UHGV virus genome: UHGV-1728491
Length of the DNA: 14,974 nucleotides
Source of the DNA: a virus
Reading direction: 5' to 3' (one strand)
Shown: piece after piece, positions 1 through 8,567 of the stretch
Numbering within the stretch: position 1 is the first letter of the stretch
Layout: every line of letters starts with the position of its first letter
Program-made: the position numbers and the translations under genes
Notes under the pieces: model-generated
Database searches by the model: none
What the model was told of the DNA's origin: nothing
The model's input: the letters and a program-made list of their open reading frames with translations, nothing else

Positions 1-1130
1 CCTGAAGATGTAGATGAGAAAAATTTTGCTCCACATTCAATCGTTCTATTTATTGCTTGGTCTTTAATAATTTGCGGAAGCGCATCCCATATATCAGTAT
101 CCAATGATGTTGGTTGATACCCATCTCGTGACTGCTTAACATCTGATACTGTTGCATCCCATGTAGTAGTGTCACGCTTAATAACGTACGGAACACTGAT
201 TGTCTGGAAGGTGAGATCGGCAATAACTGAATTATTGGCGTCAGTAAATTCAAACATCTTGTCTGATTTAATAACCGCATTCCCAACCCCATACATCTGA
301 AAGCTGCCTGTATAGGTTATCTTCTTGTTTACAAACCATGTTCCTTCAGGGAAAAAGAATGGTAGGCCTGAGTGAAGGGCTGATATAAGGGCATCTGAAC
401 AATCCTGCCCTGACACACCACCGTACCAAGTAATTGGTTTAGCGATATCAGCAATGTAACCGGCACCACCAGGTCTGCCAAGAGCAAGCAGAACATCCGC
501 AGCAGATCCTGATGTTGGAACGAGCATGATTGGGTTACCATTAGCGTCAAACCCAACGATTTTATTCTTTCTTTGTTCGATACCTGGAAGCTGTGGTATT
601 GCTTCAGCAGTACGTAACGTTCTGTTCAGGTTTGTGGTTGAAACAACATCAACATAGTTTTTTGTAGCCGCATCCTGCGGCTCGCGTGGATCCTTCAAGT
701 TTCTAATGTAGTTGTTCAGCGCGTCATACCAGTTTGCGATACTCGATGGCTTACGTAGCGCCAGCCTGAATAAACTACTTACCTGCTGTATGAGCATAGT
801 CAGCTTATCAAACGCATCCTCGTGCACCTCAGCAAAAAACTTACCCTGGTTTCTAAGATCTGTTTCCTGAGTAACCGGCAGTTCTCGCGATATGGAAATC
901 TGATAACCATTAGCCAGTGCCTTCGACAGAATTACATTGCCGCCGTTATACCCTCCCGCACCAGTGACTGTGTAATCAGTATCAAGAGCCAGCACAGTGA
1001 TATTCTCGTCAGGGTCAATCACCTGCACTACTAGATCAGATTTATTGAAAACCCTAAAGGTATAAGGGAATGATGTCGTAACGCCGTTACCGGTGTATTC
1101 GTTGTGGTCAACTTCGGTTGAGACCGTCAT
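1..1130 (-). CDS. Tailspike / tail fibre protein, first 376 codons only (gene runs off the window start): N-terminal virion-attachment domain followed by the start of a beta-helix receptor-binding/depolymerase-type domain
   Basis: Absent from the ORF track because it has no in-window stop. I checked every minus-strand codon by hand from the ATG (rc of 1128-1130) to position 3: no stop. An in-frame TAG lies upstream at 1182-1184. SD GGAGA (rc of 1137-1141) is 6 nt before the ATG. Translation starts MTVSTEVDHNEYTGNGVTTSFPYTF; residues ~230-270 (WYGGVSGQDCSDALISALHSGLPFFFPEGTW) look like the start of a pectate-lyase-type beta-helix; VKQSRDGYQPT (nt 108-140) matches, from memory, a segment of the P22 gp9 tailspike (LKQSKTDGYQPT). 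The track ORFs 50-292 and 329-556 are other frames of this gene. Confidence 0.8.
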   Translation of the reverse strand, partial: MTVSTEVDHNEYTGNGVTTSFPYTFRVFNKSDLVVQVIDPDENITVLALDTDYTVTGAGGYNGGNVILSKALANGYQISISRELPVTQETDLRNQGKFFAEVHEDAFDKLTMLIQQVSSLFRLALRKPSSIANWYDALNNYIRNLKDPREPQDAATKNYVDVVSTTNLNRTLRTAEAIPQLPGIEQRKNKIVGFDANGNPIMLVPTSGSAADVLLALGRPGGAGYIADIAKPITWYGGVSGQDCSDALISALHSGLPFFFPEGTWFVNKKITYTGSFQMYGVGNAVIKSDKMFEFTDANNSVIADLTFQTISVPYVIKRDTTTWDATVSDVKQSRDGYQPTSLDTDIWDALPQIIKDQAINRTIECGAKFFSSTSS

Positions 1131-1324: not shown

Positions 1325-1582
1325 ATGCAGCAGTATCACTATCCACTGGAAGACGGATTTACCGAAAGGATTCACACGCCGGGAGGCGTCAGGTCACTGG
1401 TGGAGGGATCGCACTTGATGAAATTACTCCGGGATCTCGATAAGGATGGATTTAATGTCGATGGCCCACTTGCCGAACTGACTGCATTGATTAACTACGT
1501 CACCAGCTCACAGATGTCTATGCAGGATCTGCAAACACATCTCGACTATTGTGCCGAACAATTACGAAAACAAACCCGGTAA
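1325..1582 (+). CDS. Hypothetical small soluble protein (85 aa), orphan gene divergent from the late operon
   Basis: ATG at 1325 is preceded by SD GGAGAAG (1313-1319). Stop TAA at 1580-1582 is followed immediately by the 1590-1605 hairpin. The track's longer 126-aa version (from 1202) extends into the AT-rich promoter-like region with no SD, so I prefer the internal start. Product MQQYHYPLEDGFTERIHTPGG...; no family recognised. Confidence 0.6.
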   Translation: MQQYHYPLEDGFTERIHTPGGVRSLVEGSHLMKLLRDLDKDGFNVDGPLAELTALINYVTSSQMSMQDLQTHLDYCAEQLRKQTR

Positions 1583-1605
1583 ATTTAAAGGCCGCGAAAG
1601 CGGCC
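1581..1605 (-). terminator. Rho-independent terminator ending the minus-strand late operon; also the 3' hairpin for the convergent plus-strand gene
   Basis: Perfect stem GGCCGC (1590-1595) / GCGGCC (1600-1605) with a GAAA loop (UUUC on the minus transcript). On the minus-strand RNA the hairpin is followed by UUUAAAUUU (complement of 1581-1589). On the plus strand the downstream sequence is not U-rich. Confidence 0.7.
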
Positions 1606-1625
1606 TGTGACATGTCACGCTCACG

Positions 1626-1766
1626 TTATGACAAGCCTATGTACCCTGCTACACCAGATAATATCAAAATAACTGCAACAGCAAATTCGCCATCGTCAAT
1701 GATACATTTACGGTTCATAACGCCAAGTGCAACAAGCGCAAACACAACAAGAATAAAAGCAATCAT
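1626..1766 (-). CDS. Small hydrophobic protein, 46 aa, two predicted transmembrane segments; function unknown
   Basis: Hand-translated (below the 60-aa track cutoff): MIAFILVVFALVALGVMNRKCIIDDGEFAVAVILILSGVAGYIGLS, stop TAA at 1626-1628. SD AAGGA is 6 nt before the ATG (rc of 1764-1766) and overlaps the stop of the upstream 824-aa gene. Two hydrophobic stretches flank a charged loop (NRKCIIDDGE). Confidence 0.55.
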   Translation of the reverse strand: MIAFILVVFALVALGVMNRKCIIDDGEFAVAVILILSGVAGYIGLS

Positions 1767-1775
1767 TTCTCATCC

Positions 1776-4250
1776 TTATTGCGGAGTGACATCCTGTGGT
1801 CGCCACCAGTATGTCTGGTTAAACTCTTTCTTCGAACGTTGCTCCATTTTACGCAAATAACCTGGTGAAAAATACTCCTGCATCTGGTTAAAGATCATGT
1901 GATCGAGAGACGCCTTTAAGTACCAGAGATTCGCACCTGGCATCAGACCTTTCCCCAGCTTAACCAGATCACCACCAGTCTGCTCATTCTTCCCTTCCAC
2001 AGCATTTAACGGTATGCCCTGAGCAATCTTCACTACGTCATCAACCAGACCAGCTACCGGGCCAAGCATCGACGCCAGCGCGCCGCTTCCGTACCTAGTG
2101 TGATCTGACAATAAAAAGTCACCGTAAAGGCCAAGACCACCACCTTTCAGTAGAGCACCAAGCCAAAATTTAGCAGTATCTTCTCCTGTCATCTCGCGAG
2201 GATTACGACCAGACGCAAGGTCGTTAAGTTGCTGCGACAAAGCGCCAAGAATGGTCGTACTGGCAATAAACGTCGCAATATATGCCGCACGCCCACCAGC
2301 AGACGGCATACCCATAGCGCGTGACCAGTGACGCATAACCACCGAGATAGGGAACGATTTAAACAGGAAAACACTTCTCGTTAATTCACCTTTCCATGTT
2401 CCACGCTGAATACCAGAACCGGTTATCAGTTGCTCACGTGCTCCCGGTGTAATAACAGCCATATCAACTTCTTCAGTTACGGCACCGAGCAGTTTACGCA
2501 TTGCCTCAAATTTCACGCGTTCAGGCTCACCAAGATGTTTAACTGCTGAATCAGGGATACGCATAATGCTTTCCGGTGTCAGCATCGTATTATTACCGTT
2601 CCCCCAGTCCTCCTGTTGCGCCAGCTTCCATACACTCCAGTCTGTGTCAGTAATCCCTTTGCTTTTCAGGATACGAAAATCAGAGTCATCGAGGCTACGA
2701 AGGTCTGGCGTCCGTGACACTACTTCTCCCAGGCTTCCCATCATGGTTACGCCATAGGCGCGCTTGTGCGCATCTGACCATGCTGTAAGCCCACTGGCAC
2801 GCATTACGGCCGTTGCCGCCCAACGAGACACTGACGGCCCCATATTATCCATCGCCCAGCGGTTAACGCTGCCAAGTAGAGATTCCATCGCCAGACCAGC
2901 GCGGCGCGCCCGCACAAGTTCTGTACGGTTCGTTGGGTCCATAGCTTCAAGCTGGTTGCGGAATAACTGGTTCATTGGAAGGTTGGTAACCTTCGCCGAC
3001 AGATACATGGTTCCAAGATCAGAGAACGATGACAGCAACGCGGATCCGAGTCTGCTGGCAACCAGCCAGTTGCGGATATTGTCAGACCATCGCGCGATGT
3101 GCGGATTCGCTACAGGCTGTGTCTTTCCGGAAATAAAGTTGTACAGATTCTCTGTGTTGTTCGCCAGCCGCTCGACTTTACCGGTTTTACTCGGGTTAGC
3201 TGTTGCCGTTTCTGCCTTCACCTGATCAAGAAGAGAGCGGAAAACATGATCGGGGTTTGGGCCATATGTTTCCACCAGTGCAATATCTTTACTGATACCT
3301 TCCAGGTGACCGACCATGATTTCCCATAGAGAGCGATCGCCATAAAGTTGCTGATATTGCAGATAGGAATCTGCATCTTTGAAATGTATCTGTCGTGATG
3401 CATTACCACGGTTAGCACGTGCGCCGGAAATTCGCATTCCGGTATCAGTAAGCTTATTCAGCCCACCAGTAGCGATCGTGTTATAAGCCTCTCCAAGAAA
3501 TGCAGACAACTCAGCATCGTTCATCAGTTGTCCATCGGCTCGGGTATAATATTTGCGATCCAACTTACCTATAACATCGCTAACCCACTTATCCTTTGAT
3601 ACCGCCCCAACCTTTTCCATAGAATGATGTTGAGGGATCCCCCAGTTTTCGAGATAGCCAATGTCCCCACCAGCATCATTAAACCGGCGGCGCAGTAGCT
3701 CTGTCACTTCTCTCCACGCCTTAGCACCTTTTCTTGCTTTAGCATTGCCAGTATTTTGCCCCCGCATTTCATATACCAGGTCACGTACGCCCGCTTCATC
3801 TTCAAACAGACCAAAAAAGCGAGGATCAACTGCTTCGAATGCCTCCTGCAATTGACTCAATGCATAATCACGGGTGGCTTTTGTTCTGGATTCAACAGAG
3901 AGGAAATTCGATTTACCGTCTGCATTAAAAGCAATAGTACGGTTAAGAGCACCGAGTTTCCCATCAGCCCCTTGATAGCTATTGATAAATTTATCCAATC
4001 TCTGACGTGCGGCTATAGTGAGGGCCACACGACGTTTATTTAATGCCGCTTCTCGCTGTAATTCTTCAGATGCCAATTGTGCTGCTCGATATAGCCGCTC
4101 TGATTCGGAAAGTTGTCGCCACGACATCGGGTCATCACGAGCAATGGAGCGCATATTTCGATAAATGCGGTCTTCAATGTTCTGTATTTCTCGCGCCGTT
4201 AACGTGCGCTGCGCCGCCTGCTGGACCGCTTGTATACATTCCTGTCTCAT
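1776..4250 (-). CDS. Large internal virion / ejection protein (824 aa); C-terminal region resembles the C-terminal part of T7 gp16-type internal virion protein D
   Basis: Long ORF with own ATG (rc of 4248-4250) 5 nt after the stop of the preceding gene; a GAGG 9 nt upstream overlaps the end of the upstream gene. Last gene of the tail/ejection cassette. Gly/Ala-rich hydrophobic C-terminal third (…GGRAAYIATFIASTTILGALSQ…GGGLGLYGDFLL…) resembles what I recall of the T7 gp16 C-terminus. Unverified. Confidence 0.7.
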   Translation of the reverse strand: MRQECIQAVQQAAQRTLTAREIQNIEDRIYRNMRSIARDDPMSWRQLSESERLYRAAQLASEELQREAALNKRRVALTIAARQRLDKFINSYQGADGKLGALNRTIAFNADGKSNFLSVESRTKATRDYALSQLQEAFEAVDPRFFGLFEDEAGVRDLVYEMRGQNTGNAKARKGAKAWREVTELLRRRFNDAGGDIGYLENWGIPQHHSMEKVGAVSKDKWVSDVIGKLDRKYYTRADGQLMNDAELSAFLGEAYNTIATGGLNKLTDTGMRISGARANRGNASRQIHFKDADSYLQYQQLYGDRSLWEIMVGHLEGISKDIALVETYGPNPDHVFRSLLDQVKAETATANPSKTGKVERLANNTENLYNFISGKTQPVANPHIARWSDNIRNWLVASRLGSALLSSFSDLGTMYLSAKVTNLPMNQLFRNQLEAMDPTNRTELVRARRAGLAMESLLGSVNRWAMDNMGPSVSRWAATAVMRASGLTAWSDAHKRAYGVTMMGSLGEVVSRTPDLRSLDDSDFRILKSKGITDTDWSVWKLAQQEDWGNGNNTMLTPESIMRIPDSAVKHLGEPERVKFEAMRKLLGAVTEEVDMAVITPGAREQLITGSGIQRGTWKGELTRSVFLFKSFPISVVMRHWSRAMGMPSAGGRAAYIATFIASTTILGALSQQLNDLASGRNPREMTGEDTAKFWLGALLKGGGLGLYGDFLLSDHTRYGSGALASMLGPVAGLVDDVVKIAQGIPLNAVEGKNEQTGGDLVKLGKGLMPGANLWYLKASLDHMIFNQMQEYFSPGYLRKMEQRSKKEFNQTYWWRPQDVTPQ

Positions 4251-6058: not shown

Positions 6059-8567
6059 TCGGAATATCTCCGGAGAATCTCTGACGCTTCTGTGTCAGAT
6101 TAAGAACAACGGGAGAACCATCATCTTTCAGCAGATAACCAGTACCAAGTTTCACCAGGTACTGACTATCGCCGTAACTTTGCAAACCATACTGACCAGG
6201 CGGTGTTTTTATCCCGGAGCCGACAACTTGTTCATTCCAAGCCTGATTAACCTGCTTATCGAATTGCTCCGCAGACATTCCCCACGGCAAAAGGACATTC
6301 CCCATTCCGTTATAGTCATGCACGCCACCTGTAGCTACGTTAACAGCCTGTTTCCAGACATCATTGTCAATTTCGCCTGATACCACGCCTTTTTTCGCCA
6401 TCACACCAGCGTAATAATCCTTTGCGATCTCGTATGCCATTGATGCCCCCTGAGCGTCACCAGCAAATGCATCCTTCACCATGTCAGAAAACTCAAGGCG
6501 AAGATCAGCATCTTTAGGCATCGGAATACCTTTCGCATCATCAGTACCTTTACGAGCCGCCGCGCCAGCAAGAATTGTCTGCGCAGCGGTTTCAGGAGAC
6601 ACGGAAACATCCGGATTAAACCAGTTTTTTTCTGCCAAAATACCACCTGGCTTATCCATCAGTATCCCGGCAACGGCAGCAGATGGAGCGTTGGCACTGA
6701 TCTGCTGTAGTGCTGACATATACACCTGCCCACCACCAGTGCTCTGCCTGATGGTATCGAGATATGCTGCCTGTTGGGAAACTGGAGCATCACGAAAGAA
6801 AACACCGATCTGATTGGCCTCATCTTTGGAAAAGAACGTCAGTGGAGTGCCATATGACTTAGCAAGGTCACTGACCTGAGCGGCACGCAAGGCAACGCTC
6901 TGTCCAAAGTTATCCTTATTGCTCATGTCGATAGGCTTTGCCTGTCCGGCGGCAAGAGAGAACTGCACAGGATCCGATTGCCGCTGCTTTATCACCTGAT
7001 TTGCAGCCGAAACAACGTTGTCATAAAGAGCTGCGCGTGCCGCATACCCCTCCCCTGTCTCACCAGTATCCGGGCGTAATTGCTCAACATATGCTGTAAT
7101 GCTGCTTGTCGGCATGTTGCGGAAAGAGCCTATATACTGTCCGGCGATTTGCGTATTTCTGAACTCGGTATATCGCAGGTTTCCTTCTCTGACTCCATAA
7201 GCTGCAATAAAATCAGCCTCACCAGGTGGGTTAGGAAATTCAACGCCACGCATATACGCAGATGTCGCATCGCGAACTTGGCTGTCAATCATCGTTTTAT
7301 ATTCAGCCTGCTGCTGCCGACGCAGTTGATCCGCCTGTCGCATAAAACTTGCCTGCGCCTCAGGAGATGCCGCATCGAATGCTGCATTACCGGTATAGCG
7401 TTTGGTGTTGGTTGGAATTGTTGATAAACCAAGTGCTGCACTGACACCAGCAGTTAACTGCTGATCACTGTATGGCTGGCTACCGTTCTCATGATGGATA
7501 ATGGCTGCACAAAGCGCCTTCAGGGTATCAGGATTAGATGCATCGAGAGGCTCATCAGCAGAAACGCCAAGTTGTTCGCACACTGCTTTGATATACGACA
7601 TAGTGTCATTTTTATCAGTAGGCGGTGCCCAGCGATTAATTATCTCGCTGACGGTATCGATACCCTGCCGCTGATACGACATCAGGTTACGCCCTAATGC
7701 ACGAATCCCGTGCTCAGGTGTTTCGAATTTAGCAAATCGACCATCATCACCGGTCTGGCCTACCCACGGATTAGTTTTGCTGTATTCGAGATTTCCTGGG
7801 TTATTGTTGCGTATGCCACGGGCACGCTCGGAAGAGTCATTATCTGCTACAGCACGGCGAGCTCCAGCAGCAGTATCACTTAACTCGCCATTACTTTGGA
7901 TGAATGCGGTCGCATTGTTTGCCGACCACTGGGACAATGCGGCATCAGCAACCTTCTCTTTAAACTCGATTTTCTTGGCCTGTATTTGCTCGTCGCTCCA
8001 GCCATGCGCAACGCCGTAATCCTCAATTTGCTGGAAAGTTTGCTTATTAGCCAATACGTATGCGGCGTTGTCGCCATACAATGCTGCGGCATTTTTACCA
8101 TTGTTCAGCAGCGTCGCCTGAAACTGGCCTTCTTCGTAGGAATTTATTTGCCCTATCTCGTGCCGCCCGGCCTGCGTAGTGAACTGAATGCGCTGCTGCT
8201 GCGCCTGCTGCATGAAAGCATTACGAGCCTGTTCATCCGGCAGCGACATAGCCAGTTGCTCGACCTGGGCATCAAACTGCTGCGTATACTCCTGACCTTT
8301 TCCAATAGCATTTTTCCCTTTCAGGTTAAGCAATCCTGTTTCAGGATTATTCAGCAGATCACTGCTTATCTGACTGAGGTTAAGAGATGCCTCCTGAGCC
8401 AGAGCGATATTGGCACGCTGTTTTGCCTGCCCCAAAACATCAATTGCCTCTGTCCCTGCCCGAACAAAAGCATCACTAATACCTAGCTGAGAAAACGTCT
8501 GCAAGCCTGCTGACTGAACTCCACGACTCTCAACCTGACGTCCGGATACTGTTGGTACGACTGGCAT
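6039..8567 (-). CDS. Large internal virion / ejection protein (842 aa from the preferred start), gp15/gp16-class; contains a conserved hydrophilic NNNPGN block of possible enzymatic function
   Basis: The track gives 867 aa from 8642, but the ATG at rc 8565-8567 has a strong SD GGAGGA (rc of 8573-8578) and forms a TAATG stop/start overlap with the gp14-like gene, so I place the start at 8567. Follows the gp14-like gene as in T7-type cassettes. Conserved-looking block RGIRNNNPGNLEYSKTNPWVG…IINRWAPPTDKNDT at nt ~7443-7820. Confidence 0.65.
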   Translation of the reverse strand: MPVVPTVSGRQVESRGVQSAGLQTFSQLGISDAFVRAGTEAIDVLGQAKQRANIALAQEASLNLSQISSDLLNNPETGLLNLKGKNAIGKGQEYTQQFDAQVEQLAMSLPDEQARNAFMQQAQQQRIQFTTQAGRHEIGQINSYEEGQFQATLLNNGKNAAALYGDNAAYVLANKQTFQQIEDYGVAHGWSDEQIQAKKIEFKEKVADAALSQWSANNATAFIQSNGELSDTAAGARRAVADNDSSERARGIRNNNPGNLEYSKTNPWVGQTGDDGRFAKFETPEHGIRALGRNLMSYQRQGIDTVSEIINRWAPPTDKNDTMSYIKAVCEQLGVSADEPLDASNPDTLKALCAAIIHHENGSQPYSDQQLTAGVSAALGLSTIPTNTKRYTGNAAFDAASPEAQASFMRQADQLRRQQQAEYKTMIDSQVRDATSAYMRGVEFPNPPGEADFIAAYGVREGNLRYTEFRNTQIAGQYIGSFRNMPTSSITAYVEQLRPDTGETGEGYAARAALYDNVVSAANQVIKQRQSDPVQFSLAAGQAKPIDMSNKDNFGQSVALRAAQVSDLAKSYGTPLTFFSKDEANQIGVFFRDAPVSQQAAYLDTIRQSTGGGQVYMSALQQISANAPSAAVAGILMDKPGGILAEKNWFNPDVSVSPETAAQTILAGAAARKGTDDAKGIPMPKDADLRLEFSDMVKDAFAGDAQGASMAYEIAKDYYAGVMAKKGVVSGEIDNDVWKQAVNVATGGVHDYNGMGNVLLPWGMSAEQFDKQVNQAWNEQVVGSGIKTPPGQYGLQSYGDSQYLVKLGTGYLLKDDGSPVVLNLTQKRQRFSGDIPNELLWP

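Follow-up and report, generated by a model that had tools for sequence, protein, structure and literature searches.

The window analysed here is the whole 14,974-nt stretch taken from the virus genome UHGV-1728491. The region discussed below shows 96-98% nucleotide identity to the epsilon15/phiV10-like temperate podophages (Uetakevirus), with PAS61 and phiV10 as the best matches, and all large virion genes of the window lie on the minus strand. The gene order is an 824-aa gene, a 46-aa gene, a palindrome with a terminator, the convergent ant gene and the tailspike gene. The first of these, a virion or injection-apparatus gene at 1776-4250 on the minus strand, matches phrog_684 and has an annotated counterpart in PhiV10p20. 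The 824-aa protein is a homolog of the product of the last large virion gene of epsilon15-like phages; its C-terminal region is hydrophobic and may be the membrane-inserting end of the injection conduit. The C-terminal part (window 1776-2300, minus strand) also contains the hydrophobic, glycine-rich stretches AAYIATFIASTTILGAL and FWLGALLKGGGLGLYGDFLL, and, at 27% identity, the C-terminal region is all of the protein that can still be aligned with the 1129-aa protein found in a distant podophage.

The 46-aa gene occupies 1626-1766 on the minus strand (ORF call, stop codon included) and encodes MIAFILVVFALVALGVMNRKCIIDDGEFAVAVILILSGVAGYIGLS. Direct reading of the sequence places its ATG start codon at 1766-1764, preceded on the minus strand by ...CAA TAA GGATGAGAA ATG, where the stop codon TAA (1778-1776) ends the 824-aa gene. 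The Shine-Dalgarno sequence AAGGA (1777-1773), whose last base lies 6 nt before the ATG, overlaps this stop codon in the hexamer TAAGGA (1773-1778, minus strand), and the spacer between the two genes is only 9 nt. The initial annotation had proposed an ATG-started frame of 46 codons at 1626-1766 with a well-placed Shine-Dalgarno sequence, and the same frame and signal were recovered here.

Past the stop codon of the 46-aa gene, at a distance of 20 nt on the minus strand, stands a GC-rich hairpin, AGGCCGC-TTTC-GCGGCCT, followed by TTTAAATTT. Together they form a terminator-like intrinsic signal at 1580-1606 (minus strand, stem 1606-1589), and a terminator is annotated at the equivalent place in phiV10. 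The location between the last ejection gene and a terminator, as first described, is borne out. A perfect 12-bp palindrome, GTGACATGTCAC, lies at 1607-1618 and abuts the terminator at 1589-1606. The convergent gene beyond it (1325-1582, plus strand) encodes 85 residues, 88% identical to a SPC32H product annotated as antirepressor Ant; the product also matches phrog_450 and, weakly, an anti-repressor PHROG. A perfect match to the LexA-box consensus, CTGTATAAATATACAG, is found at 1288-1303 on the plus strand, 21 nt upstream of the Ant start codon. The PAS61 record gives a 126-aa version of Ant, starting at 1202; since this version would contain the LexA box, the short 85-aa form is more plausible. 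The 5′ part of the tailspike gene, with its conserved N-terminal head-binding domain, fills positions 1-1130 on the minus strand, as judged from the sequence and from the tailspike annotations of relatives. The 46-aa gene had been described as the very end of the late operon. It does come last before the terminator, but the minus-strand tailspike gene lies further downstream, beyond the convergent antirepressor gene.

As read from the gene arrangement, the 46-aa gene seems to be expressed solely along with the late genes, as the predicted last cistron after three large virion or injection-apparatus genes. No sigma-70-like promoter was found in the 334 nt upstream on the minus strand by either a standard or a relaxed scan (at least 8 of 12 positions), although a consensus scan of this kind could miss a weak or unconventional site. 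The sole promoter-like site on the minus strand, at 1726-1699, was dismissed, being inside the 46-aa frame itself. Because no promoter was detected and the gene starts only 9 nt from a late gene, its expression in a repressed prophage is unsupported.

A conserved and already catalogued gene

The 46-aa frame is a genuine conserved gene of the Uetakevirus temperate podophages. It is also an already known one, catalogued for years as encoding a hypothetical or putative membrane protein. The initial annotation called it unlisted; it was right that a real small gene lies here, but that gene is annotated in phiV10 (PhiV10p21), SPN1S, SPC32H (SPC32H_019), 65FD and PAS61, as well as in SPN9TCW and 66FD, and has its own PHROG. 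The window protein is 100% identical to the PAS61 product (WMX19000.1) and 98% identical to PhiV10p21, from which it differs at one residue (D25 in the window, Y25 in phiV10). Altogether, 15 phage records encode proteins 85-100% identical to it. The proteins of phiV10, SPC32H and SPN1S, the last recorded as 'putative membrane protein', belong to the same family (phrog_7892), with the same length and position and two annotated transmembrane helices, and the window copy differs from them in nothing of substance.

The database search that had been proposed as a check gave a full-length match to phrog_7892 (E=5.5e-33, residues 1-46 against profile positions 1-46). Among 5.8 billion proteins, 42 clusters at 90% identity were recovered, all at least 74% identical to the 46-aa protein, and their sources (Escherichia, Salmonella, Citrobacter and Hafnia) are all enterobacterial. 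A profile search of 1.84 billion representative proteins at 50% identity returned only 6 representatives, all of the same family. Since the profile search matched its own family alone, the 46-aa protein has no distant characterised relative there. No experiment on the family was found in the searchable literature, and the gene goes unmentioned in the papers on ZX5, on tailspike modularity and on the epsilon15 cryo-EM structure.

Conservation of the reading frame, another proposed check, is supported by several observations. The sense frame is open in 22 of 22 distinct copies tested, a set that includes a four-locus variant with a shifted C-terminal end and excludes one copy with an early frameshift (L063). 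The frame is under purifying selection, with dN/dS of 0.08-0.32 (Nei-Gojobori). Against the Salmonella copy there are 10 synonymous and 7 non-synonymous differences, and against the Citrobacter copy 21 and 20, counts to be read against non-synonymous sites about three times as numerous as synonymous ones. Variable sites fall at the first, second and third codon positions in the ratio 16/9/35. Damage does occur: in the locus survey, frameshifts or truncations affect 5 of approximately 32 copies, which indicates that loss is tolerated. One frameshift is common to four loci and changes the last seven residues, while the L063 copy is truncated after residue 19.

On the plus strand, a 103-aa frame at 1549-1860 crosses the terminator and overlaps the 46-aa gene in antisense. 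Since the two frames share their third codon positions, the antisense frame was checked separately. It was rejected as an antisense shadow, which stays open because of this coincidence of third positions; stop codons interrupt it in phiV10, L075, L101 and L102.

Two loci with lesions nearby may be recorded here. A premature stop lies 21 codons ahead of the normal end of the 824-aa gene in L082 (viral contig IMGVR_UViG_2778261543_000004), where the 46-aa gene is intact. In L099, a Salmonella prophage, an ISL3-family transposase gene (6508-7728) stands between the antirepressor gene and the tailspike region, and despite this insertion the 46-aa gene and the injection genes are intact.

A predicted membrane hairpin

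The 46-aa protein is predicted with high confidence to be a helical membrane hairpin, in which two hydrophobic helices make up nearly the whole chain. Two hydrophobic helices with a charged turn had been suggested for it, and this picture holds up. The mean Kyte-Doolittle hydropathy is 3.0 over residues 1-17 and 2.3 over residues 28-45, the second segment being rich in Gly, Ala and Ser and only moderately hydrophobic. The AlphaFold2 model, computed from a 32-sequence alignment, has helices at residues 2-19 and 25-45 joined by a five-residue turn, K20-D24, with a mean pLDDT of 92. In the family alignment the helices vary conservatively, and two segments are invariant or nearly so. The first is the turn, N18 R19 K20 x I22 I23 x D25 G26 E27 F28, with the family consensus N-R-K-x-I-I-[DE]-D-G-E-F. 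The second is a C-terminal motif, S37 G38 x A40 G41 Y42 I43 G44, which gives helix 2 its conserved small-residue pattern S-G-x-A-G-Y-x-G. The protein ends in ...GYIGLS at the close of helix 2, with nothing beyond and no charged C-terminal tail.

Comparisons with known proteins and domains were negative. A Foldseek search of viral structures with the hairpin model returned its own family as the sole significant match; as the other matches are generic helical hairpins, nothing can be inferred from the fold. Pfam gave only a sub-threshold match to DUF5367 (13.5 bits against a cut-off of 25) and NCBIfam no match for the 46-aa protein. PADLOC had no match for it or for six alternative cassette proteins of the kinds described below. 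For the 46-aa protein and the alternative cassette proteins alike, the Pfam, NCBIfam and PADLOC scans gave sub-threshold noise only.

The 46-aa protein, small, with two membrane helices and translated from a late transcript, could be a modulator of lysis timing of holin, antiholin or pinholin type, one of the candidate functions named in the initial annotation. The class II holins and pinholins, such as S68 of phage 21, are likewise small and made late, and of their two hydrophobic helices one is rich in glycine and only just hydrophobic. Helix 2 of the 46-aa protein is only marginally hydrophobic as well, and its motif, read as S37-G38-x-A40-G41-x-x-G44, resembles a glycine zipper. However, unlike those holins, the 46-aa protein has no charged C-terminal domain and no dual-start motif, its gene is not beside an endolysin gene, and it matches no holin family. 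Moreover, genes that fit such a role better lie elsewhere. The Salmonella prophage L097, which has the same 46-aa gene, carries Phage_holin_8 and Phage_holin_3_7 genes (PF16931, PF05449) beyond the tailspike and O-antigen-modification (gtr) genes, and TL-2011b has two small genes in the matching place directly before its annotated endolysin. The 46-aa gene can also be replaced by unrelated genes or be absent. A role in lysis timing is improbable on these grounds.

The same annotation also offered a small membrane toxin, and a type I toxin or another self-standing membrane-depolarising toxin could stabilise the prophage. The peptide is small and very hydrophobic, and the convergent antirepressor transcript could run antisense to its gene, the hairpin having no T-tract on the plus strand. 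This candidate finds no support in the gene's surroundings, however: the gene is coupled to the late structural operon with no promoter of its own detected, and no Rfam toxin or antitoxin RNA was found on either strand of 1100-2400, where the threshold of E<=1 gave one chance snoRNA match only. Two-helix hairpins are also atypical for type I toxins. Hence a toxin is a highly improbable identity for the 46-aa protein.

An exchanged slot behind the last injection gene

The new result of this analysis is the slot that the 46-aa gene occupies: relatives with a near-identical upstream gene carry non-homologous alternatives in its place. The survey covered 88 loci encoding the C-terminal 300 residues of the 824-aa protein, 80 of them on viral contigs (95-99% identity) and 8 from genomes of other genera. 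The 46-aa family fills the slot in 31 loci (about 160 bp). A larger group of 41 loci (about 491 bp) has an unrelated 57-aa two-helix protein together with a 98-aa multi-helix membrane protein (phrog_3075), whose gene follows the 57-aa gene in all but one of them. In 8 loci (about 599 bp) a 41-aa single-helix protein is accompanied by a 126-aa lipoprotein with an LVGC lipobox (phrog_3716). Single loci have a 102-aa signal-peptide protein (Citrobacter, about 322 bp) or a 159-aa lipoprotein (Pectobacterium), and in two loci, from Sodalis, the slot is empty. Four of the 88 loci were not scored (two contig ends, one premature stop in the upstream gene and one partial match). In addition, an epsilon15-like phage has a gene for a 64-aa hydrophobic protein overlapping the stop codon (phrog_29212), and in phage Tyrion the slot holds a 103-aa two-helix protein. 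The slot alternatives are all envelope proteins.

The 57-aa family is conserved as well: it has 13 protein clusters, with five enterobacterial genera named among their sources. Homology between the 46-aa (type A) and 57-aa (type B) cassettes was considered and rejected, as hhalign gave it a probability of 1.3%.

Both edges of the slot are sharp. On the left, the cassettes diverge abruptly at their 5′ ends exactly at the stop codon of the 824-aa gene; L003, L004 and L005 have the junction CAATAAGGA / CAATAAAAGGAG in common but continue with different genes. The first gene of the slot starts at most about 12 nt from the upstream stop codon in every case, and it has its own Shine-Dalgarno sequence wherever the junction sequence was read. 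On the right, the 12-bp palindrome and the terminator form the conserved 3′ boundary in every cassette type. The palindrome might be a protein-binding or recombination site. Among 5426 complete E. coli genomes, the 3′-boundary block (about 1587-1622, terminator hairpin and palindrome) is present in 456 and the full 46-aa cassette in 54.

Several small genes of the slot deserve separate mention. The 57-aa two-helix frame of phiv142-3 (L004 2838-3011, minus strand) and the 41-aa one-helix frame of ZX5 (L005, about 601-726, minus strand) both come directly behind the 824-aa gene and are conserved and hydrophobic, but are unannotated in the respective GenBank records and are without a PHROG; small-protein blind spots therefore remain in this region. 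Another slot family consists of proteins of 92-103 aa with two hydrophobic helices, represented by Tyrion gp19 (L095 6053-6364, minus strand) and by a 92-aa relative in L101 (5668-5946, plus strand). The two are 30% identical (E=2e-6), and both have a charged C-terminal tail, LWLKRKKLE...

The 46-aa family was found just downstream of the last injection-apparatus gene in every context examined. In most contexts no gene stands between the two; in L101 the 92-aa membrane-protein gene intervenes. Linkage of position is thus combined with rapid change of sequence, and the 46-aa family evolves faster than the injection module. The metagenomic contig L100 encodes an injection protein with 87% identity to that of the window, against just 49% for the small protein, and L102 encodes an injection protein at 92% identity. 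Over its last 200 residues, the 1129-aa protein encoded ahead of the family member in L101 has only 27% identity, and that member itself has 42%; it stands in tandem with the relative of Tyrion gp19, and a convergent Bro-N gene follows. The members at 42-49% identity, and one further member, are all found just downstream of the last injection gene; where the contig is long enough, they are followed by a convergent antirepressor or Bro-N gene.

Such constancy of position could point to a helper of the lytic cycle. In this view the membrane-active 824-aa protein and the 46-aa hairpin would be produced at the same time; the hairpin would either keep the 824-aa protein, or the cell membrane, quiescent in the producing cell or help to bring that protein into virions, and it could even be a minor virion or ejected component. 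The tight coupling to the last injection gene through the overlap of Shine-Dalgarno sequence and stop codon, with no promoter of its own detected, favours this explanation. So do the presence of a small hydrophobic frame as the first gene of the slot in five cassette types, including those of epsilon15 and Tyrion, and the retention of the position even beside a very divergent injection gene. However, non-homologous cassettes follow injection genes of 98-99% identity. A comparison of the 75 closest loci found no site in the final 900 nt of the upstream gene with a fixed difference between cassette types, which indicates free recombination of the cassettes onto a common injection-gene background. 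Such free exchange with unrelated genes, combined with the lack of co-variation, argues against an obligatory partnership with the injection protein. Furthermore, the slot of some relatives contains a lipoprotein or an exported protein alone, or is empty, and frameshifted 46-aa copies exist. A helper role in the lytic cycle is therefore unlikely.

The uniform envelope character of the alternatives is consistent with another explanation, in which the 46-aa protein would be a conversion factor that remodels the envelope. It would bind and inhibit a host inner-membrane enzyme of O-antigen or envelope synthesis, acting in the way of Iap from Pseudomonas phage D3 and the small 'Gnarl' proteins, and thereby change the receptor for related phages. 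These phages recognise the O-antigen, and O-antigen acetylase or gtr genes lie two genes away. Phage proteins of 40-90 aa that alter the O-antigen without being enzymes are documented, among them Gnarl1-3 (PMC12373910); Gnarl3 binds the cytoplasmic GalU, and D3 Iap is cited as a small blocker of the O-antigen polymerase (PMC12373910). Like the 46-aa protein, these are very small accessory phage proteins; their target is the envelope biosynthesis of the host, and they are able to keep out kin phages. However, the 46-aa protein has no sequence relationship to D3 Iap or the Gnarl proteins, nor similarity to any known conversion factor. Its family also occurs with tailspikes of differing specificity, in phiV10 (O157 host), in PAS61 (O146 host) and in the Salmonella phages SPN1S and SPC32H. 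The 46-aa gene is not adjacent to the conversion genes, and a conversion factor would share with an exclusion protein the problem of a missing promoter for lysogenic expression. Taken together, these points make envelope conversion quite unlikely as the function of the 46-aa protein.

Superinfection exclusion as a candidate role

Superinfection exclusion, the last of the candidates in the initial annotation, is a plausible role and is ranked first here purely on positional and population-genetic grounds. The 46-aa protein may be an accessory (moron-type) protein of the cytoplasmic membrane, as opposed to a core protein of morphogenesis or lysis, and its most likely action would be interference with DNA entry of related phages, a reading that we hold tentatively. 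It is ranked first because a fast-evolving accessory hairpin, found among envelope alternatives and fixed to the DNA-entry module beside an antirepressor gene, parallels sieA of phage P22. P22 SieA blocks DNA injection, and escape mutations map to the ejection proteins gp16 and gp20 (PMC10883804). The sieA gene is present in only 22 of 66 P22-like phages, as three types about 25% identical to each other (PMC10883804).

There are three points of likeness. First, both are inner-membrane proteins (a prediction for the 46-aa protein) of temperate, O-antigen-specific podophages. Second, both genes stand between the last ejection or injection gene and the tailspike gene, beside an antirepressor module. 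Third, both occur in a fraction of the relatives only, as several very divergent or unrelated types. The differences are equally clear. SieA, with 162-164 residues and three predicted helices, carries FxRYPxEAxxFNK as a conserved motif on the cytoplasmic side, and its gene has a promoter of its own within 85 bp (PMC10883804). The 46-aa protein, in contrast, has two helices and does not contain this motif, no promoter was detected for its gene, and it shows no sequence similarity to SieA or Imm.

According to the proposed mechanism, the 46-aa protein would sit in the inner membrane and interfere there with DNA entry by related incoming phages, and so be a very small functional analogue and positional counterpart of P22 SieA. 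Judged solely by the positive-inside rule, from R19 and K20, the turn would face the cytoplasm and the two termini would lie in the periplasm. The face of glycine and small residues on helix 2 could mediate helix packing, either of the hairpin with itself or with a membrane partner from the host or the phage. Several considerations weigh against exclusion. The missing promoter is its main weakness, since classic exclusion needs expression from the prophage. The lack of similarity to SieA, Imm or any PADLOC, Pfam or NCBIfam family, the absence of the SieA motif and the tolerance of loss seen in the damaged copies also count against it. In addition, 46 residues leave almost no extramembrane surface for the recognition of a partner.

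A bolder reading takes in the slot as a whole: in Uetakevirus prophages it could serve specifically as a hotspot for genes that block entry. At least five unrelated families of very small envelope proteins would then share it (the hairpins of 46 and 57 aa, the single-helix protein of 41 aa, the 64-aa protein of epsilon15 and the 103-aa protein of Tyrion), along with the lipoproteins. Among SieA-like proteins that block podophage DNA entry, the 46-aa hairpin would be the smallest known, and it would act purely by intramembrane helix-helix contacts. We regard this extension as decidedly doubtful.

The 46-aa frame itself adds nothing new. The possible importance of the locus lies in a slot for the exchange of tiny envelope proteins behind the DNA-injection genes, sharply bounded and often swapped, in a common family of E. 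coli and Salmonella prophages. Should the cassettes prove to block entry or modify the envelope, they would influence the set of phages able to infect the lysogens. If true, this would bear on phage typing, on phage therapy of O157 and Salmonella, and on the way in which injection conduits cross the inner membrane.
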